DNA of 57,004 bases from a virus, in the IMG/VR virus record IMGVR_UViG_3300047497_000008, positions 1 to 57,004 of that record; one strand, 5' to 3'. Of this stretch, positions 13,223 through 30,663 are shown piece by piece; the first letter of the stretch is position 1; each line of letters begins with the position of its first letter. A program made the translations under genes and the position numbers. A model generated the notes under the pieces. The model saw nothing but the letters and a program-made list of their open reading frames with translations. It was not told the DNA's origin and did not search any database.

Positions 13223-13510
13223 ATGGACTCCAAGACTCTACGGGCTCTCCGCTCAAGGGAAAGCATTTGTCTCGAAAACGAGACGAACGACCCGGCCACC
13301 GTCAGCATCGTGCAAGCGAACGTGTCGGAGGGGTTGGAGCTGATCCGATCGCTATCTGATCGTGGCGTAGGCGATCCGCTGCTCGCTGCTTTGGCCTTCG
13401 CCGTGCAACACGTTTCTGACTCCGTTCGTCTTATCCCGAACGGCAGCGAGGCGTATGTCGTTCTCAAGATCAAAAGGGGTGCGCCGGAAACCCGGAGTAG
13501 CATGCGATGA
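13223..13510 (+). CDS. hypothetical protein
   Basis: ATG 13223 is preceded by AAGGAG. The track extension to 13178 only covers the palindrome. Confidence 0.55.
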   Translation: MDSKTLRALRSRESICLENETNDPATVSIVQANVSEGLELIRSLSDRGVGDPLLAALAFAVQHVSDSVRLIPNGSEAYVVLKIKRGAPETRSSMR

Positions 13511-13833: not shown

Positions 13834-13847
13834 CAGGAGGACGCGTT

Positions 13848-14258
13848 ATGCACTTCGATGTATTGCGGGAAGCCAACGCCGCCCGTGTCGGGCTGTTCAA
13901 GAATGCCAAAGGCGAGACGCAACACTCAGGCGTTGGTGCCGGCGACGAATGGACGCCGAACGATTGGTTTACGGCCATGGCCGGCGAGCTTGGTGAAGCT
14001 GGGAACGTCCTCAAGAAAATCAGGCGCGGCGACTTCACGATGGACGAAGCTCGTCATAAGGTCGCGCAAGAACTGGCCGACGTGGTTATCTATCTCGATA
14101 TGCTGGCCCACGCGTGCGGAATCAATCTCGGGCAAGCGGTGATGGATACATTTAACGCCAAGAGTCGGGAAAAGAGTTTGCCTATCCTCATTCGTGAACG
14201 CGGCCTCCATCACGGGCGGCATCAGTCGTATTGCGTGATAGATACGAACAAACCATGA
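13848..14258 (+). CDS. MazG-like nucleoside triphosphate pyrophosphohydrolase
   Basis: AGGAGG RBS. Motifs AMAGELGEAGNVLKKIRRGD and ELADVVIYLDMLAHACGINL. Confidence 0.8.
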   Translation: MHFDVLREANAARVGLFKNAKGETQHSGVGAGDEWTPNDWFTAMAGELGEAGNVLKKIRRGDFTMDEARHKVAQELADVVIYLDMLAHACGINLGQAVMDTFNAKSREKSLPILIRERGLHHGRHQSYCVIDTNKP

Positions 14259-14857
14259 GCTTCGATTTCCTGCTGCACGATGTTGTCGGCTACGCCGATT
14301 TCGAGGATGACGACGGAGTTCCAGCCATCAAACAGTTTCGCACCCTCCTAACTCGGCGCTGGGGTGGATCGGACGGCAGGAATTTCGTGCTTTGGGTGAT
14401 GCTCAACCCGTCAACGGCAACCGGCGTTCGGAACGACCCGACGCTGAAAGCAATCATAGAAATGACGCATAACATGGGATACAACGCGCTGCGCGTCGTC
14501 AATCTCGTGACCTACAGAACGTCAATACCGAGTCAGCTCTACGCATGGCTGGATAAGCAGAAAGAACCTCAAGGCGCGTATCTCGACAAGTGCGCGAATC
14601 TGATATGGTTCCAGATTCAACTCGCAAGCGAAGTTATCCTGGCCCACGGGCAACACGTTCTTGTGAAACGCCGCGAACCGTGGCACCGCGTACTGTTGCG
14701 AACGCAAGCCCAGCTCGTGTACAAGTTCACCGTTGACGCCGGCCACGTTCCGTTGTGCGTCGGCGTCAATCGAGACGGCTCGCCGCGTCATCCGCTGGCG
14801 CGCGGTGGGCATCGCGTACCGCGTGACGTGATCCCGCAACCGTTCACAATGAGGTAA
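14255..14857 (+). CDS. DUF1643-family protein
   Basis: ATGA overlap with the upstream stop. RRWGG...FVLWVMLNPSTATGVRNDPTLK...GYNALRVVNLVTYR matches the DUF1643 signature as I remember it. Confidence 0.7.
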   Translation: MSFDFLLHDVVGYADFEDDDGVPAIKQFRTLLTRRWGGSDGRNFVLWVMLNPSTATGVRNDPTLKAIIEMTHNMGYNALRVVNLVTYRTSIPSQLYAWLDKQKEPQGAYLDKCANLIWFQIQLASEVILAHGQHVLVKRREPWHRVLLRTQAQLVYKFTVDAGHVPLCVGVNRDGSPRHPLARGGHRVPRDVIPQPFTMR

Positions 14858-14860
14858 GGC

Positions 14861-15058
14861 ATGAGTCGGTATCTAGGAGCACGTACCAAGTTCACGTTGA
14901 GAATCCCGCTTGAGCTGCATGTTACGCTTACCAGATCCGCCACGTGGCTTGGCGTACCGCTCAACGATTACATCATAAAGCGTTTACGTGAGGTAGAAGG
15001 AACATATGTCAGTGCCGAAATCACCGAGACCCCGCAAACCGCGCGCCAAAAAATCTAA
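14861..15058 (+). CDS. Arc/MetJ-type ribbon-helix-helix DNA-binding protein
   Basis: FTLRIPLELHVTLTRSATWLGVPLNDYIIKRL reads as a beta strand plus two helices. The stop lies 3 nt before the 19-bp palindrome 15061-15079. Confidence 0.65.
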   Translation: MSRYLGARTKFTLRIPLELHVTLTRSATWLGVPLNDYIIKRLREVEGTYVSAEITETPQTARQKI

Positions 15059-15063
15059 CACTC

Positions 15064-15076
15064 GGAACTTAGTTCC
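15064..15076. repeat. GGAACTTAGTTCC palindrome (19-bp CTCGGAACTTAGTTCCGAG, 15061-15079)
   Basis: The 19-bp form starts 3 nt after the Arc-like gene stop. The core lies 8 nt upstream of ATG 15084. Confidence 0.95.
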
Positions 15077-15083
15077 GAGACAC

Positions 15084-15290
15084 ATGAGGTTCCCATTCGA
15101 GCGTGGTTTCCGGGCCGCGTTACTGCTGACGGCGAGCAAGTGTGCCGCTTCTATCCCGTGCTACAATCGCGTGACGGAGCGGTGGGCTTTCGATGGAGCG
15201 CGAGACGCGTTCGATCGGTATTTGCAACGTGAGTTCCGCGCATTCGCGGAGCGACTGAGAGGATCGCCCGATGGCAAAACCACTGCTTGA
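15084..15290 (+). CDS. hypothetical protein
   Basis: ATG 15084 lies 8 nt after the palindrome and the RBS is weak. The track ORF 15006..15290 overlaps the Arc-like gene. Confidence 0.45.
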   Translation: MRFPFERGFRAALLLTASKCAASIPCYNRVTERWAFDGARDAFDRYLQREFRAFAERLRGSPDGKTTA

Positions 15291-15681
15291 CGAGTTGTTC
15301 CCGGGAGACGCATACGACGCGGCTTTCGAGGCTCTGCGAGACGCACTACTCACCGACATGCGCGCTACGCCGAACGCGGAGGAGGCCGACGCACTGCGAA
15401 AAGAAGCGATGGCGACCATAATCGAGTGCCTGACTCAAATACAACCGGGCACCGACCACTCGCTAGTGACGTGCATCGCCCGATCATGTATAGGTCACGG
15501 CGCACCGGCAGCGCTGTTGCCGGAGGTATTCATGCTACTGGCCGGAGCCGCATGCGAAGGCGCCGGCGAGAGCAAGGCGGGCATGTACAGCACGGCTATG
15601 TACGCGCTCAACCTCGGCTATGAGCGCTCCGCCGCCAGCGTCATCAACATCGTTTCGTGCGAACGTATTAAGGGGGAGTAG
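15271..15681 (+). CDS. hypothetical protein
   Basis: 136-aa ORF with GAGAGGA 7 nt upstream. Confidence 0.6.
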   Translation: MAKPLLDELFPGDAYDAAFEALRDALLTDMRATPNAEEADALRKEAMATIIECLTQIQPGTDHSLVTCIARSCIGHGAPAALLPEVFMLLAGAACEGAGESKAGMYSTAMYALNLGYERSAASVINIVSCERIKGE

Positions 15682-15685
15682 TACC

Positions 15686-16069
15686 ATGCCGAAAGACGAT
15701 ATGAACAAGCCGACGTATCTGGTGGCGTTTCGCACGTTTCCACGCGCTCTTGCTGCCGTCGATCGTCACATGCGAGCACATGCAATCAAGCACGGCGACA
15801 ATCCGCGAGAATTTCTCAATGTTCAAGACGGATACCGTCGATACAGTGAAGCGCTGTTGCGGCACGTCGGCCGAATCGGCGAAGGCTCCGCGCTCGCTCA
15901 TGCGGTCGCGGTTGCCGCCAACGCGTTGATCGCACTTGAGATTGCCCTGGAGCATGACACGTTGGAACCAAGTTCCGAGGCGCAACAGCTCACGCTCGAT
16001 CGTGCCGCGTTCCTCAAGGATCGATACGACGGCGTGCCGGGCGGCGATCACCCGAACGGAAAAATCTGA
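15686..16069 (+). CDS. helical NTP-diphosphohydrolase-like protein (DUF5664-type, tentative)
   Basis: AGGGGGAG RBS. AIKHGDNPREFLNV..YRRYSEALLRHVGRI..ALAHAVAVAANALIALE resembles the KYG..NW..RH..H pattern. Confidence 0.5.
   Translation: MPKDDMNKPTYLVAFRTFPRALAAVDRHMRAHAIKHGDNPREFLNVQDGYRRYSEALLRHVGRIGEGSALAHAVAVAANALIALEIALEHDTLEPSSEAQQLTLDRAAFLKDRYDGVPGGDHPNGKI
15964..15976. repeat. GGAACCAAGTTCC degenerate copy
   Basis: Inside gene 15686..16069. The 5-bp arms GGAAC/GTTCC are kept. Confidence 0.5.
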
Positions 16070-16159
16070 TCCGACTTACGAATCTTTCTTGACACTCAAC
16101 CACGGCAATCGCATTGTGCGTTTGTCACTTCCCGACAACATCTTTCAGGAGGCTACCAA

Positions 16160-17296
16160 ATGCCCGACACCGCTGGCGAAGCAACCGCCGGAATCGATGT
16201 TCCGTCCATTCTCACTCACATGGGCGCCGTCAAGCGCAACTATTGGATGGCCGATCTGGACATGATCCACATCCGGCCGGATTTCAACAAGCGGGACAAG
16301 AAAGATCCCGAGTATGGCGCGCATATCGATCTGCTCACGCGCAACATGCTGGAGGAAGGCTTTCGCGAAGACCGGCCGCTGCTTGTCAAGATCGCCAACG
16401 TCTCCGGTCTCGATCGCCTCGTGCTGGTGGATGGAGAGTCCCGTATGCTCGCCGTCGCCAAGGCCAACGAGTCGCTGCCCGAGGAACGCAAGATCGTCGC
16501 CGTCCCGATCATCGTCAAAACGGACCTGACGCCCGAAGAAGAGCTGCTGACCATGGTTCGCTCGAATCAAGGGCGTCCGTTTACGCCGATCGAGCTGGGA
16601 TCGGTGATCGTGGATTACATGAACCTGCCCACGGCTACCGGTGAAAAGCGCGGCGACAACGAAGTGGCGGCGCAGTTCAACGTGACTCCGCGCTACATCA
16701 ACGATCTGCTCCTGCTCGCCAAGGCACCGAAGTACCTCAAGGATCTCGTCGCGGCTGGCACCGTTTCCAGTACGCTCGTTCGTGAAGAGCTGCGCGCCGA
16801 CCCGAAGAAGGCCACTGCCCGGTTCAAGGAAGCCGTCGCCGCCATGAAGGCGGCGGGCAAGGACAAGATCACGAAGAAGTACCTGCTGAAAGCGGGCGCG
16901 GAGACGCCGGCCGAAGGAGAGCCGCCTGTCGTCAAGTCGTACAAGCTGAACGACGCGGATTTCCCGAAGGCCGCGATCCAATACGCCCTGGATACCATGA
17001 TTCACGGCGAAGATCCGACGGCACAGCTCCTGTGGCTGGATGCCTGGAGCAGCGGCGACACGGAAGCCGTCGCCGATCTGGAGAAATACAAGGGCTGGCC
17101 GGCTGGGAGCACGAACAACCCGAAGGCTCGCACGGTCAAGCCGCCCAAGAAGGCTCGCAAGCCCAAGGCGCCGAAGGAAGGCACCAAGGCGGCCGAGAAC
17201 GTCAAGAAGGACACCGCTGCCGCCGCGAAGACGCCCGGCAGGCGGAAGCCCCAGGCGACGGCGCCCGCCGCCGACGACGGACTCGCCGGGCTCTAA
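16160..17296 (+). CDS. ParB/KorB-family protein (N-terminal ParB/Srx domain + HTH + basic tail); no ParA partner
   Basis: AGGAGG RBS. N-domain IHIRPDFNKR and LVLVDGESRMLAV (GxxR box). HTH region RSNQGRPFTPIELG...VAAQFNVTPRYINDLLLLAKAP. K/P/A-rich C-terminus. Confidence 0.85.
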   Translation: MPDTAGEATAGIDVPSILTHMGAVKRNYWMADLDMIHIRPDFNKRDKKDPEYGAHIDLLTRNMLEEGFREDRPLLVKIANVSGLDRLVLVDGESRMLAVAKANESLPEERKIVAVPIIVKTDLTPEEELLTMVRSNQGRPFTPIELGSVIVDYMNLPTATGEKRGDNEVAAQFNVTPRYINDLLLLAKAPKYLKDLVAAGTVSSTLVREELRADPKKATARFKEAVAAMKAAGKDKITKKYLLKAGAETPAEGEPPVVKSYKLNDADFPKAAIQYALDTMIHGEDPTAQLLWLDAWSSGDTEAVADLEKYKGWPAGSTNNPKARTVKPPKKARKPKAPKEGTKAAENVKKDTAAAAKTPGRRKPQATAPAADDGLAGL

Positions 17297-17365
17297 GCCC
17301 AAGGGTCGACTCTACTCCCGGCGCTGCCCGATACGCGGCGCCGGGAAGTTACAGGAGAACGAGTT

Positions 17366-17569
17366 ATGTGGCACGGAAGGCCGTTGACCCTTACGAGATC
17401 CGAGCGCAAAACCGCCGACGAGCTGAAGCCCGTCGTCATGCCGCTGGCGAAAGAGCTGTACCCGAAGTTCGACCGCTGGCCGGATTACAGTCGGGATCAA
17501 GCACTACGCCGACTTATTCGGCTCGTCTCGATCCTGCGTATGCTAGGCTGGACGCCGCCCGTATCATGA
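17366..17569 (+). CDS. hypothetical protein
   Basis: 67-aa ORF with an AGGAGA RBS. Confidence 0.6.
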   Translation: MWHGRPLTLTRSERKTADELKPVVMPLAKELYPKFDRWPDYSRDQALRRLIRLVSILRMLGWTPPVS

Positions 17570-18057
17570 CTCAGGATCTCCCGCGCCCCTGCATGATCGT
17601 GGCCGGCTCCCGGTCGATCTATAACTACAAGCTGACACTGCAAGCGGTCAAACGTGTCGTCATGATCCTGCATCACGACACCCCAAAGTCGATCATGTCC
17701 GGCATGGCGGCGCGCGGCCCTGACTCTCATGCAGGTACGATCGCAATCATGCTTGGCCTTCCCCTCATTCCACGCCCGGCAAAATGGTTCCCCAACGGCA
17801 AGAACGCGCCGATGGACCGTGGCGCCGGCTTCAAGCGAAACGCCCAAATGGCGGTCGAAGCGGATCTGCTCACAGCCATGTGGGATGGCGAGTCACGTGG
17901 CACGGCGCACATGATCTGCGCCATGCTGGATTTACGCAAACCTGTTTATGTGTTCAACGTCGGAGGGAGACAGTACGATGTGGAAGAGTTCACCGAGCAG
18001 GCTCGAGTCGTCCTGGCACGGACGGAATACCAATCCCGAGAAGCTGGTACCGATTAA
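17566..18057 (+). CDS. SLOG-superfamily protein (DUF2493 / YspA-DprA-like)
   Basis: ATGA overlap with the upstream stop. Motifs MIVAGSRSI...IMSGMAARGPDSHAG...GAGFKRNAQMAVEADLLTAMWDGESRGTAHM. Confidence 0.7.
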   Translation: MTQDLPRPCMIVAGSRSIYNYKLTLQAVKRVVMILHHDTPKSIMSGMAARGPDSHAGTIAIMLGLPLIPRPAKWFPNGKNAPMDRGAGFKRNAQMAVEADLLTAMWDGESRGTAHMICAMLDLRKPVYVFNVGGRQYDVEEFTEQARVVLARTEYQSREAGTD

Positions 18058-18229
18058 ATATCCACCGAACCGCGCCGATGCGCTATTCTGGATCATCGTT
18101 ACGCTCGTGATGATTCTGTTTTTTATTTTCATCGCGGCCACGTTCGTCTTTCTGCTTACGCCGACGTGCTCGCTGTCGCCGTATCACGCCGAGCTGAATC
18201 GGCTACCGGGCGAGTGGAGTCCACCATGA
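17978..18229 (+). CDS. small membrane protein
   Basis: GGAGGGAGA RBS. TM segment ALFWIIVTLVMILFFIFIAATFVFLL. It overlaps the SLOG gene's 3' end by 80 nt. Confidence 0.45.
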   Translation: MWKSSPSRLESSWHGRNTNPEKLVPIKYPPNRADALFWIIVTLVMILFFIFIAATFVFLLTPTCSLSPYHAELNRLPGEWSPP

Positions 18230-18447
18230 GCGGCTATCTGGTACGTTGCTACGGCAAGCAATACTCCCTCTATCATGATGAGGCGCCGACGATCAAAGAC
18301 GGTCGTACGCCGGCCGGCGAGCTGGTAGACCCCGGCTACCCGAAAAAGATACCCGATCGATATGCGCGCCTGTCGTTCAAGGCGATCGTCGGCCTCGACA
18401 TGGCGTGCCAACTTGAGGACAAGGAAAAGGCGCCGAAAGGCGCCTGA
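18226..18447 (+). CDS. hypothetical protein (last gene of the plus-strand block)
   Basis: ATGA overlap with the upstream stop. 73 aa. Confidence 0.55.
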   Translation: MSGYLVRCYGKQYSLYHDEAPTIKDGRTPAGELVDPGYPKKIPDRYARLSFKAIVGLDMACQLEDKEKAPKGA

Positions 18448-18455
18448 TCCATCCC

Positions 18456-18468
18456 GGAACTTAGTTCC
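18456..18468. repeat. GGAACTTAGTTCC palindrome (+GAGTGT flank)
   Basis: The only structured element in the 27-nt convergent gap between the plus and minus operon ends. Confidence 0.95.
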
Positions 18469-18474
18469 GAGTGT

Positions 18475-20759: not shown

Positions 20760-21251
20760 CTACGTGATGATTGCTTGCTTGTAGGTATCGTATGCTTGGA
20801 CTGCGCTCGTCATGGATTTGGTAACTTCCTCGATCGTCGCGGCGCCCAACACCGTGTTGTAAACTCGTTTGTAGTAAGCCGCGAGTGCTGGAGCGTCTCC
20901 CGCGTCGGGCAGCGGCGCCGGATCGACATAATACCTGAGTCGGCACAGCGCGCACGCAAGATACAGATTCCCCGGTAGCTGCGCCAGCGCGGACACCGAA
21001 GGCATCGCAAACGCGGCCAGCTTCTCGGCGAACCGCTCTGGCACACGCGCATAGAGATCCGCTACGGTAGCCGGCTCCAACTGCCACGGCGACACGGCTG
21101 GACCGCGTATCTGGATCAGGTACGTCCCGGCGTTTGACTCCTGAATTGCGGTTCCCAGCACGAGCTGTTCCGCTGCCGGGCTGTCGAGCATTAGATACGT
21201 CAGCGTAGGAGCGATGACCGCCTGAAGCAGTTGCGAGAGGTCGATACCCAT
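20760..21251 (-). CDS. putative endolysin (lytic transglycosylase-like)
   Basis: GTAIQESNAG resembles the SLT catalytic E-S motif. It lies between two membrane-protein genes. Confidence 0.5.
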   Translation of the reverse strand: MGIDLSQLLQAVIAPTLTYLMLDSPAAEQLVLGTAIQESNAGTYLIQIRGPAVSPWQLEPATVADLYARVPERFAEKLAAFAMPSVSALAQLPGNLYLACALCRLRYYVDPAPLPDAGDAPALAAYYKRVYNTVLGAATIEEVTKSMTSAVQAYDTYKQAIIT

Positions 21252-21252
21252 C

Positions 21253-21265
21253 GGAACTAAGTTCC
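21253..21265. repeat. GGAACTAAGTTCC palindrome
   Basis: Its centre supplies the TAG stop of 21257..21514. It ends 2 nt before ATG 21251. Confidence 0.95.
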
Positions 21266-21514
21266 TTGTGTTGGCGGCGCGGCGGGAGGGAGCTTGTCGG
21301 CAGTCGTGAGGGAGCGGCCCACGATGCCGACAATCAGGACTCCGACCGTCACGCGGATGATTAAGTGGTAAGGAAGTTCCGCCTTGATATCGTCCGGTAG
21401 AACTTCAAGCGAACTGAGAAGCGCGATGCTCGCGGCCATCGCTTGAGTGGAAACGTAAGAGAAAATCCGATGTGCGTTCGGGATAAACCGAATATCTAGC
21501 GGGTTCAAATTCAC
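21257..21514 (-). CDS. small two-TM membrane protein (holin candidate)
   Basis: GTG start with AGGAG 7 nt upstream. Its TAG stop is the centre of the palindrome at 21253-21265. Confidence 0.5.
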   Translation of the reverse strand: MNLNPLDIRFIPNAHRIFSYVSTQAMAASIALLSSLEVLPDDIKAELPYHLIIRVTVGVLIVGIVGRSLTTADKLPPAAPPTQGT

Positions 21515-21570: not shown

Positions 21571-24420
21571 TCAAACCCGAAGATTTACTATGACGCCTTG
21601 TACGGATTCATAGTTGCCTTCGATTGGCATATTTCGTGCCGTCGTACCAATTTCGCACGCGGCGATGTACGGCCACGTTCCGGGCGTGGCGACGAGACCG
21701 CTCCCGCTCGGATAGAGCGCGCTACCCTGCACGAGTTCATCGCCGGAGTTGGTCTGCTTGACGAACACGGCGGCTCCGCGCTTATACACGGGCGCTAGCG
21801 GATAGTAGTCCGTTCTTGTCGTTCCGTTGATCCCAGGTGCCGCCGCCACGCCGCCCGGAGGATTCGTGCCGTATTGAGCACCGAGCTGATAGGAGCCTTG
21901 GTGATAAACGACGTCGCCTCGCGCGAGCGTCGCCGACGCGGTAACGAAGATGCCGTCGCCGGACATCCCATCGAAACGCGTGTTGGCGTTCTCGCCGTTA
22001 TTGTACGGCCCCATCAGCATGATCGGAGCGACGGCTTCGTTGCAGGATAGAATCGTACTGTCGTCTCGCCACGAGCATCCGCCACCGCCGCCGATGATGA
22101 TCGCCACGATAGCGCCCGTTCTCGGAATGATACTGTAGCATGTCGTTCCTTCGGGAATCGTTTGTGCCGTGTCCATTTCATAGACGCCGGTCGATATCTC
22201 GCTCAGGATCTTGGTGCCCCACTCGACGCCGATTCCGCCCAGCCAATCGCCGACCGTGAGCGATCCAGACTCGACGGTGTAGGTCGTTCCTGTCGAGTGG
22301 CCGACTACCTTGGAACGAATTTGCGCGTAACCGCCGGTCTGCGTCCGGTCGAACTGCGTATCGAAGAGGTTGCCGCTCCTCAAGTCGAACACCGCGACCG
22401 GCTTGGGCGCACCCGAGCTTTGATCTATGTAGTCGTCGTAAGTCGCGCCGACAGTCCACGTGCCACCCATGGTGAATTTGTTGCTCCCATAAACGCCGTT
22501 GAGGAAACCGCAATTGCCCGCGCTTTCGAGCGCGATAATTCCAGACGTATTGGTTACGGCGTCGTTCACGGGATTGGTTAGATTGCCGCTGCTGTCTGGC
22601 AGCTCTTTGTGGATACCGATCGGGCCAAACCCCAGGGAAAGGCCGTTCCAGATATTCGAGTCGAACGATGCCGATGCCGCAATCGCCATCGAGGCCCAAT
22701 ACGACGACGCCAATTCGACGTTTTTCATGTTTACGCCGCCGTTCGTAATCATCCACGGCTCCGCATAACAGTTCTTGTAGTTCGCCGCCGAAGAAACATC
22801 CTCGATGTATATGTGATCGCCGTTGATGCCGAAGCCGACGCCGAAGCCCTGGAACGCAGCGCGAGCGACGGTGTTGCGACCGCCCACGCCCAACCCCGTC
22901 ATTTGGGCGCCTTGTACGCCGACCGTGTGACCGCCCGGCCCCGCCATGAAGAAGTTGGCGTAACGCGTTCTCAGGTACGCCGGCCCGCGCACAGGAGACC
23001 CGAGGCCGAACCGATCCACGCCTAGATCAGTCTGCCAGCTAAACGCCGTTCCGTAAGCGCCCAGCCCCTCGACGTCGAACATGCCATAGATCAGCCCAGA
23101 CGGAACGAGAATCGTATCGTTGAAGAAGAACGACGATCCACCGAAGACGACTTTGCGCCCGAAGCCACTGGCGATATAGCAGGCTTGCGCGATGGCTGTC
23201 TGCGCGCCGAACGTGTCGAGTGACAGGGCACCGAATTGTGCCGGCGACACGCGAAACGTGATCGTCTCGCCCGACGCGATGGGCGCGGTCAGCTCGTTTG
23301 ACAGAACGATCGAACCGTAACCGGCAGATCCGAACACACTGTTAAACGAGACGAGCGTCGTGCCGTTCGGAATGCCGGCGCCTGAAACACCCATGCCCGC
23401 CTTGAGCAGCATGTAACGCTTGAGCGGGTTCTGCCACTGCGCCACGTTGGCGCTCCATCCGCCCGTGCCCGACAAGGCGTCGAGAAAATAGAGCTGCGTG
23501 TCGCCTTCGCTCGCTGCCGCGCTTACGGTTCCGGTAAACAGGCGCCCGAACAAATAGCCGTGAGTCGGATCGGTCAGATACGCGTATGGCGTGGCGCCAT
23601 TGACGACGATCGCCGCCATGGACTCCAGCGTGTCGTATTGCGATGGATACTTGTCGGCGATCGTGTTGCCGGATTGATTGCCGGTGCCGTCGCCGAGCGC
23701 GCCGAACTCGCAAACGTCGAAGATGATCGACGCACGCGTTGAAGGCTTGCGCGGCTTGACCGCACCATCGGCGATCAACGGCGCGTTGGATTGGCTCGTA
23801 TCCGTGAAGTCGAGCGTCACAGCGCCTTCGCTGCCGCTTACGTCGGCACCTGTTATCACCATGCTCGTTACATTGGTGATCGGCGCTCCGGCGCCCGTGA
23901 TGCTCAACGTGGCGCCAGACACACCGGCTAGATCCAGCGTGGCCGCGCCGTCCGATCCTGTAAGACTTCCGCCGCCCGTCACCGTCAAATCAGTTACGGA
24001 GTCAACCGTAGTGGCTCCAACTGTGACAGTGACACCGTTATTGCTGGATGCGTCTTCCGACCAGCTCGTTCCAGTCCAAACGAGAGTCGCGTGAAGTGTT
24101 TGATCCCAGGATTTCCAGCCGACGCGCGGACGGTAGAACACCCAAGCGCCGAGCCGCCATACGGCGAGCTGCGTATCCTTGCCGGCCCACGCGCCCGTGG
24201 CGCCGGCTGCCACGATGTAGCGTTGACCGTCGATCGGATTCGACGGCGGCGCGGTCAAAACACTCGATAAAGTCGATAAGTTTATCACGGCGCCGAGTCG
24301 TTCCAGCGCACCATTCATGCCGCCAGCGTTCCCGTCTGCCACGTCGGGCGGCACCGTCGAGAACGCGTCTCCGTCCGCGTATCCTGTCGGCAATCCTAGA
24401 TTTGGTTCCTGACTCGCCAT
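21571..24420 (-). CDS. tail fibre/tailspike with DUF2793-like N-terminal anchor and beta-helix (pectate-lyase-like) domain
   Basis: 949 aa. The N-terminal roughly 120 aa are paralogous to 24466..25623. FDVCEFGALGDGTGNQSG is typical of the start of tailspike beta-helices. Confidence 0.8.
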   Translation of the reverse strand: MASQEPNLGLPTGYADGDAFSTVPPDVADGNAGGMNGALERLGAVINLSTLSSVLTAPPSNPIDGQRYIVAAGATGAWAGKDTQLAVWRLGAWVFYRPRVGWKSWDQTLHATLVWTGTSWSEDASSNNGVTVTVGATTVDSVTDLTVTGGGSLTGSDGAATLDLAGVSGATLSITGAGAPITNVTSMVITGADVSGSEGAVTLDFTDTSQSNAPLIADGAVKPRKPSTRASIIFDVCEFGALGDGTGNQSGNTIADKYPSQYDTLESMAAIVVNGATPYAYLTDPTHGYLFGRLFTGTVSAAASEGDTQLYFLDALSGTGGWSANVAQWQNPLKRYMLLKAGMGVSGAGIPNGTTLVSFNSVFGSAGYGSIVLSNELTAPIASGETITFRVSPAQFGALSLDTFGAQTAIAQACYIASGFGRKVVFGGSSFFFNDTILVPSGLIYGMFDVEGLGAYGTAFSWQTDLGVDRFGLGSPVRGPAYLRTRYANFFMAGPGGHTVGVQGAQMTGLGVGGRNTVARAAFQGFGVGFGINGDHIYIEDVSSAANYKNCYAEPWMITNGGVNMKNVELASSYWASMAIAASASFDSNIWNGLSLGFGPIGIHKELPDSSGNLTNPVNDAVTNTSGIIALESAGNCGFLNGVYGSNKFTMGGTWTVGATYDDYIDQSSGAPKPVAVFDLRSGNLFDTQFDRTQTGGYAQIRSKVVGHSTGTTYTVESGSLTVGDWLGGIGVEWGTKILSEISTGVYEMDTAQTIPEGTTCYSIIPRTGAIVAIIIGGGGGCSWRDDSTILSCNEAVAPIMLMGPYNNGENANTRFDGMSGDGIFVTASATLARGDVVYHQGSYQLGAQYGTNPPGGVAAAPGINGTTRTDYYPLAPVYKRGAAVFVKQTNSGDELVQGSALYPSGSGLVATPGTWPYIAACEIGTTARNMPIEGNYESVQGVIVNLRV

Positions 24421-24446
24421 GGTGCTGAATCCTTTCTTTGTCGTTC

Positions 24447-24459
24447 GGAACTTAGTTCC
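24447..24459. repeat. GGAACTTAGTTCC palindrome (17 bp with TC/GA flanks)
   Basis: Intergenic between the two fibre genes, 27 nt upstream of ATG 24420. Confidence 0.95.
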
Positions 24460-24465
24460 GACGCG

Positions 24466-25623
24466 TCAATGAGCCGCCGATCCGGGCGGAACGAGTTTCC
24501 GAGTGAGGCCGTTTTCATCCCACGTCCAAAGTGTGAATGTCGCTCCGGCGTCTGTTCCGCCGACCGCGATTCCGATAAGGCTCCACATGCTCAAATAACC
24601 GCTCGCTTTCGGGAAACTGTAGCACGTCGCTTGACACCCGTTCGCGCCGTTCCCGTCGCGGAAATACTCATACGTGATGTAGGTTCCATCGTCCTCGATA
24701 GCGAGAGTCGTAAGCGCGTAAGGATCGTAATACGGCTGTCCGTTCCAAGGCGATCCGCCGCCGCCGCCCGTATCCCATACGGCGCTCCAGTTCACCACGT
24801 TCAAGGCGCTGAAATTGTTCCCCTGAAACATGCTCTGGAAAGAACAGAACTTGCCGGTGCTGGTATCGAAAAACCCAATTCCGCCGAACGAGTTTGCGCC
24901 AGATCCCGACACGTTGAACTGTACGACGAGTCTGTACGGCGGCGTCGGAGCTGGCCGACTAACGAAAAACTTGTTTCCTTGAAAAACGATCCCGACCCCG
25001 GCGTTCTCCTTCAAGATCGTAGGCGATCCCGTTTGTGTCGTGAAAGTGCTCGCTGCCGGAACCGGGCCATAGGAGCTGCCGCTTCCGCCACCGCCGCCGG
25101 CGTTGGCGAGAACATAAGCACGCGTGGCCGCGTCCTGCGGGTTTACCGGGTCTGCCAAATTCGTTATGCGATTGGTACCCATATTCAGATTGGCCGTGGC
25201 GGATGCTAATTCATCCAGCGTCAAAAGACGGGCGAAAGTCTGAACCGCGGCACGATCGTCGGCCCACGTCGTTCCGTTCCAGGTCAGTCGGTAGCCCAGC
25301 GTTTCCTCGAATGCCGACCAGCCTTTCTGCGGCGTGTAGAACACCCATGCGGCGCGCCAAACAGCGACGCAATGATCTTTTCCCACCCACGCTCCGGTCG
25401 CGCTTGGTGCGACAATGTACCGATCGCCGTTGGCCGGTGAGGACGGCGGCGCGGTCAATGCGCTGTTTATGACCGCGAGCTGCGTCAGCGCATCGAGGCG
25501 TTCGGCCGCACCGTTCCAGCCGCCTTGAGTGCTATCCCGTGTGTCGGCCGGTTGTGTGGCCCACGGATCGCCGCCCGTATAGCCAAGCGGTATTCCGAGA
25601 TTCGGGCCTTGTGATGCTGCCAT
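24466..25623 (-). CDS. second tail fibre with the same DUF2793-like N-terminal anchor
   Basis: MAASQGPNLGIPLGY...APPSSPANGDRYIVAPSATGAWVGKD...WVFYTPQKGW parallels the 949-aa protein. Confidence 0.75.
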   Translation of the reverse strand: MAASQGPNLGIPLGYTGGDPWATQPADTRDSTQGGWNGAAERLDALTQLAVINSALTAPPSSPANGDRYIVAPSATGAWVGKDHCVAVWRAAWVFYTPQKGWSAFEETLGYRLTWNGTTWADDRAAVQTFARLLTLDELASATANLNMGTNRITNLADPVNPQDAATRAYVLANAGGGGGSGSSYGPVPAASTFTTQTGSPTILKENAGVGIVFQGNKFFVSRPAPTPPYRLVVQFNVSGSGANSFGGIGFFDTSTGKFCSFQSMFQGNNFSALNVVNWSAVWDTGGGGGSPWNGQPYYDPYALTTLAIEDDGTYITYEYFRDGNGANGCQATCYSFPKASGYLSMWSLIGIAVGGTDAGATFTLWTWDENGLTRKLVPPGSAAH

Positions 25624-25629
25624 GATCTA

Positions 25630-28002
25630 TTATCCCCATCCGCCGCCGTATTCGTTGCCCCAGCCGTCGCCGCCTTCGGCGTCACTGAATGATACCTGAA
25701 ATCTGTAAGTGTTCCATGAGACGAGTGTGTCTCTGACTGATTCGATGGCAATCCATATTGATCCGCCGGCTCCGTCTTCCGCTTGCATAGCCGCCGTATA
25801 GGACCACGTGTTCCCGACGATCCCGGTTGTCGTGCGCAAGAGCGTCGAATTGTCGGCTGCATAGATATCTATCGTGTAGGTCTGTCCTGTTTCGAGCGGC
25901 CCGGCATCGCCGTCGTCCTGGCCCAATAGAACATCCTGCACGAGAAGCCGGTTGCGGTTCGCCCAAGTGAGAACCATATCCGTTCCCGTGCTCGATCGCG
26001 GACCATCGGCGTAAGACGTTCCGTTTATTTTCATGAGCGCAGATATCCATGGGCGCCCAAGGCGACTCGCCATGACAACCGTATCGACCGCCGCAAGGCT
26101 CGGGTCCAAGGTTTGTGATGTAAGCCGTGGTAACGTCTTCACGTAAACGCTTTCGCCCGAGACGTACTCTTGCTGATCGCTGCCGGTCGCACCGTCGATC
26201 AGGAAGTACGGCGCTCCGGCCGCGTGCCCGGCAGGGAGCGTATCGACGCAACCGCGCTTTACGACGGCGTGACCGGTCGCGTCATTGAACGCGACAATCT
26301 CTACAATCTCGCCCTCGATATACATGGCATCGCCAGCCGCGATCTCCCCGAAGTCTGTGCCACTCAACAGGTACACGTCGCCGTCAGACAAGCCGATCGC
26401 GCTCGTTATCGTAGCCGTCGCCGACCATGCGACACCCGTATTGTATTGCGCGCCGTCCGCATCCGTAGGATCGTCGGTTGACGTCTGAAGCAGATAGTTC
26501 AAGCTGTTGCTCGTCGGCCGACCGATGAACGTTGCGATGTAGCCGGCGTCTTCGGGAAGCGTCTGCGCGTTGGCCGCACCCAAACGAATCACTACGTCCC
26601 GGTAGCTCGCTTCGACTACAAGCCTGACCGTGGCCGGGATTGCCTGAGTTGGCGGCGGCGTGTAGGTAGGTTCGGTCGAACTCGTGTAAGCCGTCGCGGG
26701 AAAATCGAAAATGTCCGTCACCGCTTGAACGGTGATCTTGCCACCTTTCAAGCCGCCGATCGTGACTTTGCCGATGCGAAGTACCATGTACTCCAAGCCG
26801 CGATCCGGCAGCTCTATCGCGACCAAGCCGCCCGGCTGAAGATTGTATCCGCGCCGATCGAAGACCAAAGTGAAACGACGAAGCCCAACCACGGCGGCGT
26901 TTAGATCGCGAAGCGCCGCGCGGTGCGCAAGATCGTCCTCCGCGATCATCGGGTAGTTTCGCGTATCCGAGAATATCTCGCCGAGCGCCTGAATGCTTGC
27001 GATGTTCTGTGATCGCACTTCCCGATCGTCATTGCGCAACGGCGTGTGATAGACGACTATGATTTCGTTGAGGCCAGTATCTTGTGCCGACGACTCGTCT
27101 TCCGTAACGTCGAGAAGCCCGTTCGAAAAGTTGAACGCTGGATAATCAGACTCGCTGTAATCTTGCCGGATCATGATGATATTGAATAGGCCCGTCTGCC
27201 GGTTCAAGAACAGGGCTGCGGCGATATGATCTATGATCTGACCGATAATGTCTTCGATCGGGTTTGTTCTATCCCAGGCGAAGCAGAGGCCGAGACCTTC
27301 GGATACGCACACGTCGGCAGCAGCTCGAAAATTCGCGTCGTCAATCAGCGACGGATCGTAGCCTTTACCCCAATCCGGGTTTGTCAGCGCTTCGTAAATC
27401 ATGTGAATAGGATTCATCGCATAGATCGGACCCTGAAACCATTGATTGAAGTGCGGGTCTGATTGGTCCTGCATGAAATCCCAGCCGAGCAAGTCTATCG
27501 CGCAAGCTGACTGGTACCAGCACATATCCGATCCGTACTGACTCGGATTGAACCAGCCGTTGATCGTGCGCGAAACCCGGAACATCCAAGTCTTCGGGTA
27601 CGGATTGTTGGAGCAAACTTGTCCCTGAAACCAGATTGCGAGAAATCCGTGCATCCCTGACATGGGCGAGCCGAGCGGCGTCTGCACGTTGGTATCGACT
27701 CCCTGGTTCGGGAGTCCTTGGTAGGCGTTCATCGTGCCTTCAACGCCGCCCTCGCCGGTATCGCCGCCGAAGATCTTGGGTTGACTCATTTTGGCTTGAA
27801 CGTTTACGTTGTCGATCCAAGAACAGCCAGGCTCGCCGGAGTATGTGATATTCGGCCCTGATCCCCAGCCACGATTGTACCAAAGATATTGACCGCCGAT
27901 TACGATCTGAATTACTTGATCGACGGGACCGCGACAGACACCCATAAGAATGTCCATGAAATACTTGTAGCCGGTTACTTGACCGCCTTTGATACTACCC
28001 AT
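25630..28002 (-). CDS. host-specificity / central tail fibre protein (lambda J-like)
   Basis: 790 aa. The start MGSIKGG resembles lambda J MGKGSSKG. It lies downstream of the tail-tip genes. Confidence 0.8.
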   Translation of the reverse strand: MGSIKGGQVTGYKYFMDILMGVCRGPVDQVIQIVIGGQYLWYNRGWGSGPNITYSGEPGCSWIDNVNVQAKMSQPKIFGGDTGEGGVEGTMNAYQGLPNQGVDTNVQTPLGSPMSGMHGFLAIWFQGQVCSNNPYPKTWMFRVSRTINGWFNPSQYGSDMCWYQSACAIDLLGWDFMQDQSDPHFNQWFQGPIYAMNPIHMIYEALTNPDWGKGYDPSLIDDANFRAAADVCVSEGLGLCFAWDRTNPIEDIIGQIIDHIAAALFLNRQTGLFNIIMIRQDYSESDYPAFNFSNGLLDVTEDESSAQDTGLNEIIVVYHTPLRNDDREVRSQNIASIQALGEIFSDTRNYPMIAEDDLAHRAALRDLNAAVVGLRRFTLVFDRRGYNLQPGGLVAIELPDRGLEYMVLRIGKVTIGGLKGGKITVQAVTDIFDFPATAYTSSTEPTYTPPPTQAIPATVRLVVEASYRDVVIRLGAANAQTLPEDAGYIATFIGRPTSNSLNYLLQTSTDDPTDADGAQYNTGVAWSATATITSAIGLSDGDVYLLSGTDFGEIAAGDAMYIEGEIVEIVAFNDATGHAVVKRGCVDTLPAGHAAGAPYFLIDGATGSDQQEYVSGESVYVKTLPRLTSQTLDPSLAAVDTVVMASRLGRPWISALMKINGTSYADGPRSSTGTDMVLTWANRNRLLVQDVLLGQDDGDAGPLETGQTYTIDIYAADNSTLLRTTTGIVGNTWSYTAAMQAEDGAGGSIWIAIESVRDTLVSWNTYRFQVSFSDAEGGDGWGNEYGGGWG

Positions 28003-28165
28003 GTGAGTCTTTCAGAGCTTCGGCCGCAAGTCTAATGGCAAACTCGTTTCCCGTCAACTGAAGTTCCGATACCGGAATCCCGGCATCGAGAAACACTTTC
28101 CAGTCAAGCCCGAGCTGCCGCGCATAGGCTCTCCCGCCAGACATGCAAACGCCCATTCGGCGCAT
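27995..28165 (-). CDS. possible small ORF between the I-like and J-like genes
   Basis: MRRMGVCMSGGRAYARQLGLDWKVFLDAGIPVSELQLTGNEFAIRLAAEALKDSHG. Its stop overlaps the J-like start (ATGGGTAG). There is no clear RBS. Confidence 0.3.
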   Translation of the reverse strand: MRRMGVCMSGGRAYARQLGLDWKVFLDAGIPVSELQLTGNEFAIRLAAEALKDSHG

Positions 28166-28189
28166 GTGAACCGGACGGGCGCGTGTTTC

Positions 28190-28202
28190 AGAACTTAGTT
28201 CC
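28190..28202. repeat. aGAACTTAGTTCC near-copy (12/13, +GAGTGA flank)
   Basis: Lies 7 nt after the stop of 28209..28436. Confidence 0.85.
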
Positions 28203-28208
28203 GAGTGA

Positions 28209-28436
28209 CTATTTTCCCTTGGCATAGATCGGCTTGTTCGTAAGGTTGCCATACCATATCACCGTCCACCCTGACAGGAACGCGTCACCCCATACTACGG
28301 GAATCGGCGTGCCGTCGATGCACTGCGGCAGTACGAAATTGTTAAGCTGTTCCGACTTCGGTTTCTGTTGCCGGTTTGCGATGGCCTGAAGAACCCCGCT
28401 CGCGACCATCAGAACAACGACCCAAATGAAAGGCAT
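28209..28436 (-). CDS. tail assembly protein, lambda gpI C-terminal-like
   Basis: AGGAG RBS. A TM helix is followed by TPIPVVWGDAFLSG (compare lambda I LPVLYGEMRVG). Confidence 0.55.
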   Translation of the reverse strand: MPFIWVVVLMVASGVLQAIANRQQKPKSEQLNNFVLPQCIDGTPIPVVWGDAFLSGWTVIWYGNLTNKPIYAKGK

Positions 28437-28447: not shown

Positions 28448-29269
28448 CTAGAAAACCGGATCGCCGTCGAACGGAGAACGCCCGGACATATACGGCTCAC
28501 CGTCATAGTTTAACGTGTTGCTGTAATACGTGCTGCAATCGCTCCATGTGCGTTGGCAACCGGGGTAGGCGTTTACCACGTCCCCGACGCTCAAGCCGAA
28601 GAACAGGCCGATGACGGTTATGGCCGAGCTTGCGTGCGTCAGGATTCCGCGCGTCTCTACGGTACCGTCCGCGAGCTGCCATTCAACTGTTCCTCCGGCG
28701 AACCGGCCATTAGCGAGACTGGCGAACGCCGCGCCGACCATGCCGTTTCCGGCTACCGATATGATCGTCACTTCCACCAAGTAATCCGCCTTGACGACAC
28801 GGCAGTTGTGATCGTAAAGACAGTTGCCGCACTCTCGACCCCAGACTTTGCGTAGCCCATTCGACGTGAGATCCGATAGCAGGCTGGCGCACTTGATGAT
28901 CGCAGTTCCGATCTTCGGGATGTTAACCGACCGAACGGTTCCTTTCCAGCTCACGTAAACCTGTCGGTCTGGATCGTCGCTGTGCATTTCCGACACGGTG
29001 ATATATGTTTTGGTGCTTGGCGGCGTGGCCGAGAACAGCATCGGCATAGGCTCGGAATTGCTCATGGTGATCTCAAGCGAGTCGTCCTGCCGACTGCCTG
29101 ACTGAGTAAACCCGGAGTCGGATATCGGAGCCGATTTATAGACGATATCGCCGATCGTGATGTTCGTATCCGAACTCGTGTAATACCAACTTCCGCCGCC
29201 GCGCGTAAACGTGTAAAGCCTGATCGGCTCGCCCAGCGATAACGAAGTCTCGTAAGTCGGAAACGTCAT
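28448..29269 (-). CDS. tail-tip protein, DUF2163 / BR0599-type
   Basis: CGNCLYDHNCRV, FAGGTVEW, AYPGCQRTWSDC, NYDGEPYM. Confidence 0.8.
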   Translation of the reverse strand: MTFPTYETSLSLGEPIRLYTFTRGGGSWYYTSSDTNITIGDIVYKSAPISDSGFTQSGSRQDDSLEITMSNSEPMPMLFSATPPSTKTYITVSEMHSDDPDRQVYVSWKGTVRSVNIPKIGTAIIKCASLLSDLTSNGLRKVWGRECGNCLYDHNCRVVKADYLVEVTIISVAGNGMVGAAFASLANGRFAGGTVEWQLADGTVETRGILTHASSAITVIGLFFGLSVGDVVNAYPGCQRTWSDCSTYYSNTLNYDGEPYMSGRSPFDGDPVF

Positions 29270-30663
29270 GTTTCATCTCGCGTCGATTGGAAAGTTATCG
29301 CCACGGTGGCGCCGCCGGCCATGTCGGATCGGTGCAGGATATCTATAGAGTCTTGTGCCAGCCGCGAGTACACCATGAACGATATAAACTTGACTTGCGA
29401 AGCCGCAACCGTGGGCGGTGCCGTATCGAGAAACAGGCGCTCAAGGGCGCTACCACTCGGAACCGATACGGACGTGATGCGCGCTTGGAACTTAGTTCCG
29501 TCGCGCATCAGCATATAGATATCCTGCCGCCCTTCAAACGGCCCGAAGATGGCCATTCCGATAGGGTTCACGTCTATGTAGCCGTTAGACGATACGATAT
29601 TCTCGGCCGGCACAAGATCTTGCGCGAACGACGGCACCCATACGGGAACGCGTTGTCCGCAAAGTGTGTAGAGAAGATCCACGAGAGCCCAATACTGCGC
29701 GCGACCAAACAAAACCCAAGTGTTAATCTGCGCCGAGAACTGCGTCCCTGCCGTGTCGATCTGGATCGTGGCGCCCGTGTCGCCATCTAGTATCTCGACC
29801 ATGCGAGTAACCGCTGTCGAGATATCCTGACTCTCGTCCGGCCGCGTCTCAAGCATGATAGCGCCGCGATACGAATTGAATGTAGTCGCTGGCGTGTAGT
29901 ATTGCGTTCCCTGCACGAGATATTTCACAGTCGCCTTGAACGCGCGAGATCCTTGCCGGCTGTACGTTGGCTGTGTATCGACGCGCGCGCTCACGATGGG
30001 GTACACGCGCGCTCCGGCGCCCCAGGAGAGCCCTGTCGGGTTAGTCAGGCCCAAGGTGCCGCTGCCGACCGTTTGCACCCCTACAAGCTCACCGGCGAGC
30101 GCTGTACGCCCTCGTATGAACGCATACCCTTCGGCAAAGCGTGTGTTGACGGTTTTGACATAAAGAGTCGTGATTCCAGCCGGCGCCGCTTCTAGTAACT
30201 TGCCGCCGTCCTGCCAGTCCGGCAGATAGAACGTAGACCCGCCGTAAGCACGCATGAAAAGATCGAACGACGCCCGATCCTGATTGAACACAGTGTAGGA
30301 GATTTCCAGATAGCGGCGCGGCGAAAGTCGGAGCTGCCGGCGTTGCTCGTGGCCGAACTTGGAAACGAATACGTCGGTCATCCACTCGAACGTTTCCGTG
30401 ACGCCTTGATCCCAATCTGGCGGAACGACAACGGACGGCGGCGGCGCGATAGGCGTAGGCGGGACGTAAAGAACTTCGCCGACCATGGCGCCGATGACGG
30501 TCAGCGATGCGTGAGTCCTGATAACTTCGCCGACGAGACCGCCCGCGTGCGCGACCGAGGCCGCGAATACAGGGACTTCGCCGACGACGGAGCCGACTTT
30601 GACCGACGTCGTTCCAGCGACGTCTAGCTCCGTAACGAAAGATCCGACAACCGCCTCAGTCAT
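29266..30663 (-). CDS. distal tail / tail-tip protein
   Basis: 465 aa with ATGA coupling on both sides. It sits between the TMP-proximal gene and the DUF2163 gene. Confidence 0.65.
   Translation of the reverse strand: MTEAVVGSFVTELDVAGTTSVKVGSVVGEVPVFAASVAHAGGLVGEVIRTHASLTVIGAMVGEVLYVPPTPIAPPPSVVVPPDWDQGVTETFEWMTDVFVSKFGHEQRRQLRLSPRRYLEISYTVFNQDRASFDLFMRAYGGSTFYLPDWQDGGKLLEAAPAGITTLYVKTVNTRFAEGYAFIRGRTALAGELVGVQTVGSGTLGLTNPTGLSWGAGARVYPIVSARVDTQPTYSRQGSRAFKATVKYLVQGTQYYTPATTFNSYRGAIMLETRPDESQDISTAVTRMVEILDGDTGATIQIDTAGTQFSAQINTWVLFGRAQYWALVDLLYTLCGQRVPVWVPSFAQDLVPAENIVSSNGYIDVNPIGMAIFGPFEGRQDIYMLMRDGTKFQARITSVSVPSGSALERLFLDTAPPTVAASQVKFISFMVYSRLAQDSIDILHRSDMAGGATVAITFQSTRDET
29487..29499. 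repeat. GGAACTTAGTTCC palindrome
   Basis: Inside the tail-tip gene 29266..30663, read as GTKF. Confidence 0.95.

Follow-up and report, generated by a model that had tools for sequence, protein, structure and literature searches.

The window analysed here, a stretch of 57,004 bases that makes up a whole contig (IMG/VR record IMGVR_UViG_3300047497_000008), is a siphovirus genome and distant kin of the Burkholderia phages AH2 and BcepNazgul. Dispersed along it at 24 places, at fairly even intervals, is a 15-base palindrome, CGGAACTWAGTTCCG. The first-pass annotation of this DNA had drawn attention to the palindrome, and it is indeed present far above chance: the exact form CGGAACNNNGTTCCG has 13 copies where 0.02 would be expected, 23 sites are found within two mismatches (0.11 expected), and 24 within one mismatch of the 13-nt core GGAACTWAGTTCC. 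The 15-bp palindrome is perfect, the centre base being its sole asymmetry, and it contains a 6-1-6 core; arm positions 2–6 and 10–14 hardly vary, with A or T at the centre. The sites and their settings are as follows.

390–404: GGGAACTTAGTTCCG, one mismatch; spacer between minus-strand genes, 13 nt past the stop of 418–786 and 50 nt ahead of the start of 43–339
2750–2764: exact; within the primase-helicase gene 1252–3771
4492–4506: variant AGGAACTCAGTTCCA; one unit of a 30-bp tandem repeat
4522–4536: variant CGGAACTCAGTTCCA; second unit of the 30-bp tandem repeat (4488–4557)
4928–4942: one mismatch; 10 nt past the stop of the small open reading frame 4953–5158, with an intrinsic terminator 7 nt on
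5542–5556: exact; 10 nt past the stop of 5567–6007, 6 nt ahead of a copy of the terminator found near 4928, the next start being 164 nt away
9305–9319: exact; spacer 9264–9338, with longer complementary flanks ATGCGCG/CGCGCAT
11354–11368: exact; within the AAA domain of a MoxR-type AAA gene, coding for PELSS
13184–13198: exact; 24 nt 5' of the plus-strand gene 13223–13510
15063–15077: exact; 4 nt past the TAA of a HicB-like gene, 14861–15058
15963–15977: variant TGGAACCAAGTTCCG; within gene 15686–16069, with the ParB-like gene 182 nt downstream
18455–18469: exact; between convergent genes, 7 nt and 5 nt past their stops, adjoining a terminator at 18428–18445
21252–21266: one mismatch; its centre is the TAG stop of 21257–21514, and it touches the ATG of 20760–21251
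24446–24460: exact; spacer 24421–24465, 5 nt past the TGA of the tail-fibre gene 24466–25623 (minus strand) and 25 nt ahead of the ATG of 21571–24420, with the ribosome-binding site GAAAGGA between palindrome and ATG
28189–28203: one mismatch; 5 nt past the TAG of 28209–28436 and 23 nt ahead of the start of 27995–28165
29486–29500: one mismatch; within the tail gene 29266–30663, with extended flanks GATGCGCG/CGCGCATC
35877–35891: one mismatch; within the tape-measure gene
39154–39168: one mismatch; last 60 nt of gene 39110–39748, 33 nt ahead of the start of 38560–39120
41610–41624: exact; between the decoration-protein gene (5 nt past its TGA) and the major capsid gene (42 nt ahead of it)
45201–45215: exact; codons 13–17 of the portal gene (SELSS)
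48291–48305: exact; 5' part of the small-terminase-like gene (RNLVP)
49945–49959: exact; final five codons of the methyltransferase gene, abutting its TGA and the overlapping GTG of the SNF2 helicase gene
54284–54298: exact; spacer 54266–54338, preceded by a strong GC hairpin, 18 nt ahead of the start of 53858–54265
56876–56890: one mismatch; codons 7–11 of gene 56358–56909

Fully intergenic sites are heavily over-represented (12 of 23, compared with 7.0% of all 15-nt positions; binomial p = 8.5e-9), and the other 11 of the 23 lie wholly or partly in genes. Five are well within genes (2750, 11354, 15963, 29486, 35877), two at the 3' ends of genes (39154, 49945) and three (45201, 48291, 56876) 19–84 nt downstream of the likeliest starts, while 18455 falls between convergent genes and 4492, 4522 and 4928 in a convergent non-coding region of 1.2 kb. 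The divergent (promoter) regions at 787–939 and 11992–12427 have no site. Within the nine co-directional spacers the sites lean toward the upstream stop (mean relative position 0.30 versus 0.5 expected, z about -2.1), and the gap from stop to site is exactly 4–5 nt at 15063, 24446, 28189 and 41610. Distances from site to start span 0 to 193 nt, with no fixed position at starts. The first-pass annotation had listed eleven palindrome-to-start distances, all of them correct within about 2 nt, and had read from them a preference for short spacers upstream of start codons. The list, however, covers 11 of about 24 sites, and the effect vanishes once intergenic bias is allowed for; that bias is the whole effect, and packed co-directional genes put every spacer upstream of some start. 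The intergenic enrichment holds and the start-upstream preference is not borne out; the gene-by-gene control points proposed along with it are at best partly right.

Several features of individual copies deserve mention in their own right. At all 12 intergenic sites the plus-strand centre is T (once C), regardless of the direction of the flanking genes; at genic sites it is mostly A, for which codon choice can account. The tandem 30-bp repeat at 4488–4557 (2.3 copies), in the convergent non-coding region, holds the motif variant GGAACTCAGTTCC in every unit, an arrangement that looks centromere- or iteron-like and lies beside a putative origin. A module consisting of the palindrome, 6–7 nt and a near-identical intrinsic terminator (AATCCCGATAGA..TCTATCGGGATTTTTT) is duplicated at 4893–4942 and about 5505–5556. 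A strong GC hairpin of 13 bp, at 54300–54335, separates the SSB-like gene from site 54284, and the spacer folds at -40 kcal/mol (z = -4.9).

The palindrome is one member of a family. Searching terminase relatives de novo for palindromes in excess of expectation recovered a sister motif, GGAAGT-N-ACTTCC (GGAAGTNACTTCC), that occurs about once per 1.1 kb in one group of IMG/VR contigs and is found in other IMG/VR contigs as well; the density of sister motifs in relatives resembles that in the window. BcepNazgul has 13 sites within one mismatch of this motif and 18 copies of its 11-nt core (0.2 expected), Erythrobacter phage R16L has 20–26 such sites, and Sphingomonas phage Carli has 39 sites of a third version, GGAAA-YNR-TTTCC (GGAAAYNRTTTCC). 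The family consensus in these Nazgul-like siphoviruses is GGAA-X-TNA-X'-TTCC, where X is C in the window, G in the Nazgul type (R16L included) and A in Carli. One contig, L053, mixes versions, and 6 of its 14 GGAANTNANTTCC sites join non-complementary half-sites. No repeated palindrome was found in AH2 or in more than 40 other terminase relatives. Given that the core is identical in phages of alpha- and beta-proteobacteria, a phage-encoded reader is likelier than a host factor. A literature search found no paper describing this motif family, the X series, the even spacing or the in-gene sites; the family, its specificity series, its regular spacing and its sites written into genes are new, and the general kind is already known.

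The exact 15-mer gave, among the matches listed from viral, genome and metagenome collections, only chance singles and unrelated Bacteroidota repeats. The latter are clustered copies of the identical 15-mer in metagenome-assembled genomes of Bacteroidota/Cytophagales (L161, L137, L144, L165 and L207), with 6 copies within 2 kb in L161, and are presumably an independent repeat family.

Sites of this family are spaced more regularly than in simulations of random placement. The coefficient of variation of the gaps is 0.57 in the window (p = 0.003), 0.43 in contig L048 (p = 1.5e-4), 0.33 in L329 (p < 5e-5), 0.54 in R16L (p = 0.003) and 0.40 in Carli (p < 5e-5). With the numbers of junction and intragenic sites held fixed in the simulation, the evenness persists for the window and the IMG/VR loci. 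An exception is the early-gene region of one contig, where sites cluster. Regular spacing of this sort argues for a process running along the DNA, and not for control of individual genes.

The manner in which sites are accommodated among genes tells of pressure on the sequence itself. Among 156 sites in non-redundant members of the family, 78 are intragenic, 64 stand at co-directional junctions, 10 between convergent and 4 between divergent genes; non-coding DNA makes up 9.5% of the genomes so counted. Intragenic sites occur in all three reading frames (EVTS, GKLLP and GSYF on contig L048), and comparison of related phages shows unchanging arms around a variable centre base, with variation also at synonymous positions nearby. 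A site in the terminase gene, GGA AGT TAC TTC, is formed by codon and residue choice within a conserved zinc-ribbon peptide, CPHCGxYFE, and is found only in the close kin L048, L051 and L054 and in L021, the other compared motif-bearing genomes being without it. Junction sites of the family double as gene signals, a TAA or TGA at the centre serving as the upstream stop in 9 and an ATG following at 0–1 nt in 17 of 64, which bespeaks pressure to keep the site and not a fixed relation to starts. As judged from these sequence comparisons, selection acts on the DNA sequence of the sites, at the level of nucleotides.

The question then arises whether this sequence is read as DNA or as RNA. The isolated 15-mer of the window folds at -5.8 kcal/mol with a stem of 5–6 bp, and the 13-nt cores of the sister versions fold at -3.3 and -1.6 kcal/mol, the latter in Carli. 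Mismatches on the sense strand include 16 G.U versus 18 A.C in the core and 15 G.U versus 26 A.C at the outer pair, and 75 of 176 sites (43%) have a complementary outer pair; what is conserved is base identity, beyond complementarity. Most sites are clear of the ribosome-binding site and start codon, the gap to the start being 18–50 nt in most spacers. No Rfam family matches the palindrome, neither sigma-70 promoter-like nor terminator-like patterns are enriched, and in a loose terminator scan, whose total hits did not exceed those in shuffled sequence, only three motif copies passed, with poor T tails. The sites thus lack signatures of RNA function: the weak stem, the want of wobble pairing, the negative Rfam result and the conservation of bases all argue against RNA and in favour of a symmetric dimer that recognises half-sites in duplex DNA. 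A weak hairpin in single-stranded DNA is compatible with these results, because the invariant GGAA/TTCC arms are always complementary.

Other functions for the sequence were considered and set aside. The motif contains GGAACTT, as in the -35 element of an ECF sigma factor, and no conserved -10 element lies downstream; the sister motifs do not fit. Nor does it appear to be the target of the methyltransferase, which is missing from BcepNazgul and the L048 clade.

There is reason to think, tentatively, that the sites form a genome-wide array of duplex DNA sites for a putative phage-encoded dimeric protein, and of the explanations considered this is the one we favour, as quite possibly correct. 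On this account Nazgul-like siphoviruses would keep dyad-symmetric GGAA-X-TNA-X'-TTCC sites about every 1–2.5 kb over the whole genome, each read as double-stranded DNA by a dimer with one subunit on each GGAAXT half-site. Sites would gather at gene junctions because a fixed sequence of 13–15 bp fits most easily there, and where no junction is at hand the site would be written into coding sequence. That a protein binds the sites, which protein does so and what binding brings about are matters that we infer.

The leading candidate for this putative reader is the product of an orphan gene of the ParB/KorB family, a family whose members are known to read short palindromes scattered over replicons:

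16160–17296, plus strand: ParB/KorB-family protein combining a ParB/Srx domain at its N-terminus with a helix-turn-helix DNA-binding domain

The protein matches phrog_1033 (E = 1e-39), and a profile built from five homologues matches Spo0J (E = 6e-10) and KorB, including the operator-binding domain of the latter (E = 5e-6). A single-sequence structure model is confident only in the helical DNA-binding domain, and in a Foldseek comparison it comes closest to KorB, Spo0J, Noc and the operator-bound DNA-binding domain of KorB. All four of the complete or near-complete motif-bearing genomes have the gene; its BcepNazgul counterpart is Nazgul29, and the corresponding site there is GGAAGTAACTTCC. 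Word-indexed searches with the window protein returned only itself and one weak match. At the alignment column of these ParB-like proteins that corresponds to the arginine of ParB's GHAR motif, the window (X = C) has R, the four X = G phages have I, and both Carli (X = A) and AH2 have L, a correspondence with X that, at n = 7 sequences, could reflect shared ancestry.

If this protein is the reader, it might load or nucleate at these sites all along the genome, in the manner of KorB at OB on plasmid RK2 or of Noc at its NBS sites on a chromosome. A fuller version of the idea, that an orphan clamp of ParB/KorB type loads at 24–39 evenly placed parS-like palindromes and so covers or marks the whole genome of a probably virulent phage, with specificity switched at X between host lineages, is more doubtful, and we hold it to be a minority possibility. 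Such a clamp might serve to tell phage from host DNA, to shield the genome, or to recruit the replisome through the acidic tail with which the ParB-like protein ends and which resembles the acidic C-terminal tail of SSB and other proteins; the switch would be a substitution (C, G or A) of one half-site base, setting apart lineages with different hosts.

A number of observations weigh against this explanation or against its candidate. The ParB-like gene is also present in AH2, which is without the motif, so that presence of the gene does not predict the motif, and the other shared DNA-binding candidates (the Cro-like 940–1221 and the small terminase) are likewise in AH2. The recognition helix shows no obvious tracking of the motif type. 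Among the scanned proteins there is no ParA-like ATPase, the sole AAA protein being MoxR-type, and no KorA. The CTP-binding motifs GERRxRA and ENxxR read GESRMLA and SNQGR in the window protein and are only partly conserved; across seven homologues the arginine and the asparagine are invariant and other positions vary, and the model of the CTP domain is of low confidence. BcepNazgul, with fewer sites, is not significantly regular in their spacing (p = 0.42). Three window sites lie 6–9 nt ahead of intrinsic terminators (4928, 5542, 18455), and 9305, 29486 and 48291 have longer complementary flanks, either of which could point to a role in RNA, and palindromy together with co-variation of X and X' between lineages is equally expected of a hairpin.

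Phyletic profiling for a binder exclusive to motif-bearing phages was unsuccessful, every shared candidate being found in AH2 as well; the family-A polymerase alone goes with the motif, yet it occurs in 13 motif-less relatives. Targeting of a thymine dioxygenase by the ParB-like protein was also rejected. No TET/JBP enzyme was found in the window, and the known systems differ: their dioxygenase-targeting ParB proteins have no DNA-binding domain, and their preferred contexts are trinucleotides (PMC13229309).

Two side observations concern a relative, IMG/VR contig 3300044726_000026 (L330). It has a second gene, at 8660–10483, encoding 532 amino acids with an N-terminus resembling the ParB N-terminal motif. 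The spacer upstream of this gene is unusually long and has two sites 36 bp from each other, about 200 nt from the gene; the divergent early region of the contig (L330:1072–1611) has three more.

Alternatives to an array read by a phage-encoded dimer differ in what they make of the same sites. The first-pass annotation had raised both DNA roadblocks and an RNA element. For roadblocks to apply, a phage repressor bound at the sites would halt RNA polymerase at many points and so silence or time operons, much as the stoperators described for Cluster A mycobacteriophages (PMC4351075). Many dispersed sites enriched between genes are what one would expect of it, as are sites just past stop codons, where no ribosome trails RNA polymerase, and the three sites ahead of intrinsic terminators. 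Stoperators, however, are asymmetric and oriented with transcription (PMC4351075), and a symmetric site cannot be so oriented; moreover, half of the family sites are intragenic, the spacing is regular along the DNA and not per operon, the divergent promoter regions of the window are without sites, and no integrase or CI-type repressor was recognised among the proteins scanned. The DNA-bound protein of the roadblock idea thus agrees with the explanation we favour, while its stoperator logic fits poorly with symmetric, half-intragenic and regularly spaced sites, and we regard roadblocks as unlikely. An RNA stem-loop on the transcript, whether it is a translational operator, couples translation, marks a site of processing or stabilises the RNA, could draw on the folding of the 15-mer in every spacer tested, on the site-specific longer flanks noted above, and on the neighbourhood of some sites to terminators and of 54284 to a strong hairpin; in the sister clade, the 17 of 64 junction sites that abut an ATG and the 9 that hold the upstream stop in the loop could couple translation. 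The flanks at 9305 and 29486 were rejected as covariation, since they are mutually similar and may be one extended variant rather than independent support for a hairpin. Against an RNA element stand the short and weak stem (feeblest in Carli), the conservation of base identity with no excess of G.U over A.C, the failure of the outer pair to be complementary in most sites, the location of half of the sites deep in genes in all frames, the start distances from 0 to more than 150 nt and the lack of an Rfam match. The stem is also far below the duplex length for RNase III, which requires much longer duplexes, of about 20 bp. With its weak stem, its missing wobble signature and most sites away from ribosome-binding sites and starts, an RNA operator or processing site is poorly supported, and we consider it quite improbable.

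Quite improbable in the same degree is the proposal that the sites are single-stranded-DNA hairpins that signal replication, being recognised by the primase-polymerase/helicase or recruiting the replisome as priming or reloading points on the scale of Okazaki fragments. The even 1–2.5 kb spacing independent of gene structure would suit such signals, as would a palindrome that reads alike on both strands, the tandem copies beside the putative origin just after the primase gene, the SSB-type tail of the ParB-like protein and the family-A polymerase type that all motif-bearing genomes share and AH2 is without. The hairpins are very weak, however, those of Carli above all; a homologous primase is found in motif-less AH2, the same polymerase type occurs in the 13 motif-less relatives, and we know of no precedent for dispersed priming signals of 13 bp in phages. 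Least probable, and in our view very unlikely, is that the sites belong to a host protein (a nucleoid protein or global regulator) or are selfish miniature palindromic elements or recombination scars. They are short, numerous and, in the window, mostly intergenic, one module of palindrome and terminator is duplicated, and unrelated Bacteroidota genomes have clusters of the identical 15-mer. Yet the core is common to Burkholderia and Erythrobacter phages while close kin differ at X and one contig mixes versions, sites are built from codons within conserved proteins and evenly spaced, a unit of 13–15 bp is too short for mobility, and among the matches listed there was no enrichment in a possible host genome, only chance singles and the Bacteroidota clusters.

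The closest known parallel to the array appears to be the 17-bp dyad repeat of Cluster O mycobacteriophages, 5'-TGTTCGGNNNCCGAACA, of which more than 30 copies occur in a genome of roughly 60–70 kb (PMC4351075). Its inverted arms are invariant and its centre is variable, and many copies are intergenic with about a third in coding regions; it is unlinked to promoters or start codons, and its function has been left without assignment, with the authors predicting a dimeric DNA-binding protein (PMC4351075). Cluster O phages are not obviously temperate, and they encode a protein with a ParB-like domain (PMC4351075). The window palindrome is similarly present in many dispersed copies, with invariant arms and a variable centre, in both intergenic and coding DNA and away from promoters and starts, and the window too encodes a ParB-like protein. 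The two nonetheless belong to unrelated phages and differ in sequence and in geometry (7-3-7 in Cluster O, 6-1-6 in the window). Cluster O sites are reported to be denser toward one genome end, whereas spacing in the window is regular, and in the window family the motif changes one position between lineages (C, G or A).

Sites of ParB-type proteins afford a further comparison: RK2 has roughly twelve OB sites, the IR sites of phage N15 are dispersed over its genome, Noc uses NBS sites spread on the chromosome, and ParB-parS is a related array. KorB loads at OB on RK2, slides and acts at a distance, and the window likewise encodes a ParB-family helix-turn-helix protein. Cognate sites of ParB-type proteins are palindromes of 13–16 bp, a size that the 15-bp window palindrome fits. 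Both systems have short palindromes dispersed over a replicon with a 6-1-6 core, that of OB being TTTAGCGGCTAAA (PMC11790492); in N15 the natural palindromic SopB-binding sites are four, IR1-4 (PMC7205306). The window family differs in having 24–39 sites, against those four and the dozen or so of RK2, in that its sites are often in genes and regularly spaced, and in that the CTP motifs are only partly conserved. It differs also in context, there being no detected ParA, KorA or partition setting in the window, the phage being probably virulent and binding being only presumed.

Other repeated phage motifs are more distant. Cluster A stoperators are similar in being tens of short repressor-type sites spread genome-wide, mostly in short intergenic gaps. 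They are asymmetric and transcription-oriented, and the protein that binds them is a temperate phage's immunity repressor (PMC4351075). Window sites, by contrast, are symmetric, with no immunity repressor detected among the scanned proteins. The operators of T4 RegA are defined by where they sit, at the start codon or ribosome-binding site. These and the start-associated sequences of Cluster K resemble the window family in being short repeated motifs near starts, as with the sister-clade sites that abut an ATG. The Cluster K sequences have a fixed position at the start and have been contrasted with the Cluster O repeat on that account (PMC4351075). In the window, distances to starts vary widely and sites stand nearer to stops, and half of the family sites are intragenic.

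The genome that carries these sites is itself without close kin. A megablast search of its structural region against GenBank phages gave no matches, and no close relative was found in any collection, the nearest large terminase among 5.8 billion proteins being 62% identical. Its major capsid protein is 49% identical to that of AH2 and 43% to that of BcepNazgul, and its gene order matches both. Most genes are on the minus strand, with two plus-strand blocks at 940–3771 and 12428–18447. Landmarks other than the sites are these:

1252–3771: primase-polymerase/helicase
8022–11615: MoxR/VWA module
16160–17296, plus strand: the ParB-like protein introduced above
418–786, 16160–17296, 40130–40459, 47583–48389 and 54339–54989: genes whose products end in acidic C-terminal tails

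Other recognisable functions are tail genes, capsid, portal and terminase, and an SNF2 helicase, a methyltransferase, a VRR-NUC protein, a family-A DNA polymerase, an SSB-like protein and an exonuclease are encoded as well. Scanning the window proteins, many small ones of which had no match at all, revealed neither an integrase nor a CI-type repressor, and the phage is probably virulent.

Some features of this genome stand apart from the sites. The module at 8022–11615 comprises a MoxR-type AAA ATPase, a DUF3150 protein and a metallopeptidase/VWA protein (DUF2201), and is missing from BcepNazgul, R16L, Carli and AH2. Genes 21571–24420 and 24466–25623, which flank the spacer 24421–24465, are paralogues with near-identical N-termini (MASQEPNLGLPTGY / MAASQGPNLGIPLGY) and are probably alternative tail fibres. 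Directly 3' of the primase-helicase gene, 3813–4090 has about a dozen copies of the 9-mer GTRCTTAGG in both orientations as well as AT-rich stretches, and is likely a replication origin; this iteron and the centre of the palindrome have ACTTAG in common. The same acidic tail ends several otherwise unrelated proteins (SSB-like, small terminase, exonuclease, ParB-like and small proteins) and varies by lineage: ..D..GL in the window, DPAAGL in Nazgul, DDDI in R16L and LDLDGL in Carli, with AH2 proteins having such tails too. This suggests a common docking motif for one hub protein, comparable to SSB tails. In AH2, a few copies of AACAACA-N3-TGTTGTT lie in divergent regulatory regions (L257:5481, 13514; L378:4563, 4600), where they adjoin its Cro-like and DNA-binding genes and look like ordinary operators.

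The repeats of the non-temperate Cluster O phages have been known since 2015 without a function, and the window family provides a second, unrelated case. The question has now become testable, as BcepNazgul, Erythrobacter phage R16L and Sphingomonas phage Carli are listed as isolates with named hosts, and the natural specificity series (X = C, G or A, and the mixed case) adds to that testability. Regular spacing combined with in-gene sites in three frames constitutes a quantitative signature, one that points to a process along the DNA, and for annotation the lesson is that spacer motifs of this kind should not be taken for operators linked to start codons. Should a ParB-family protein prove to be the reader, the biology of ParB/KorB clamps would extend from partition and plasmid regulation to whole-genome use by a lytic phage.

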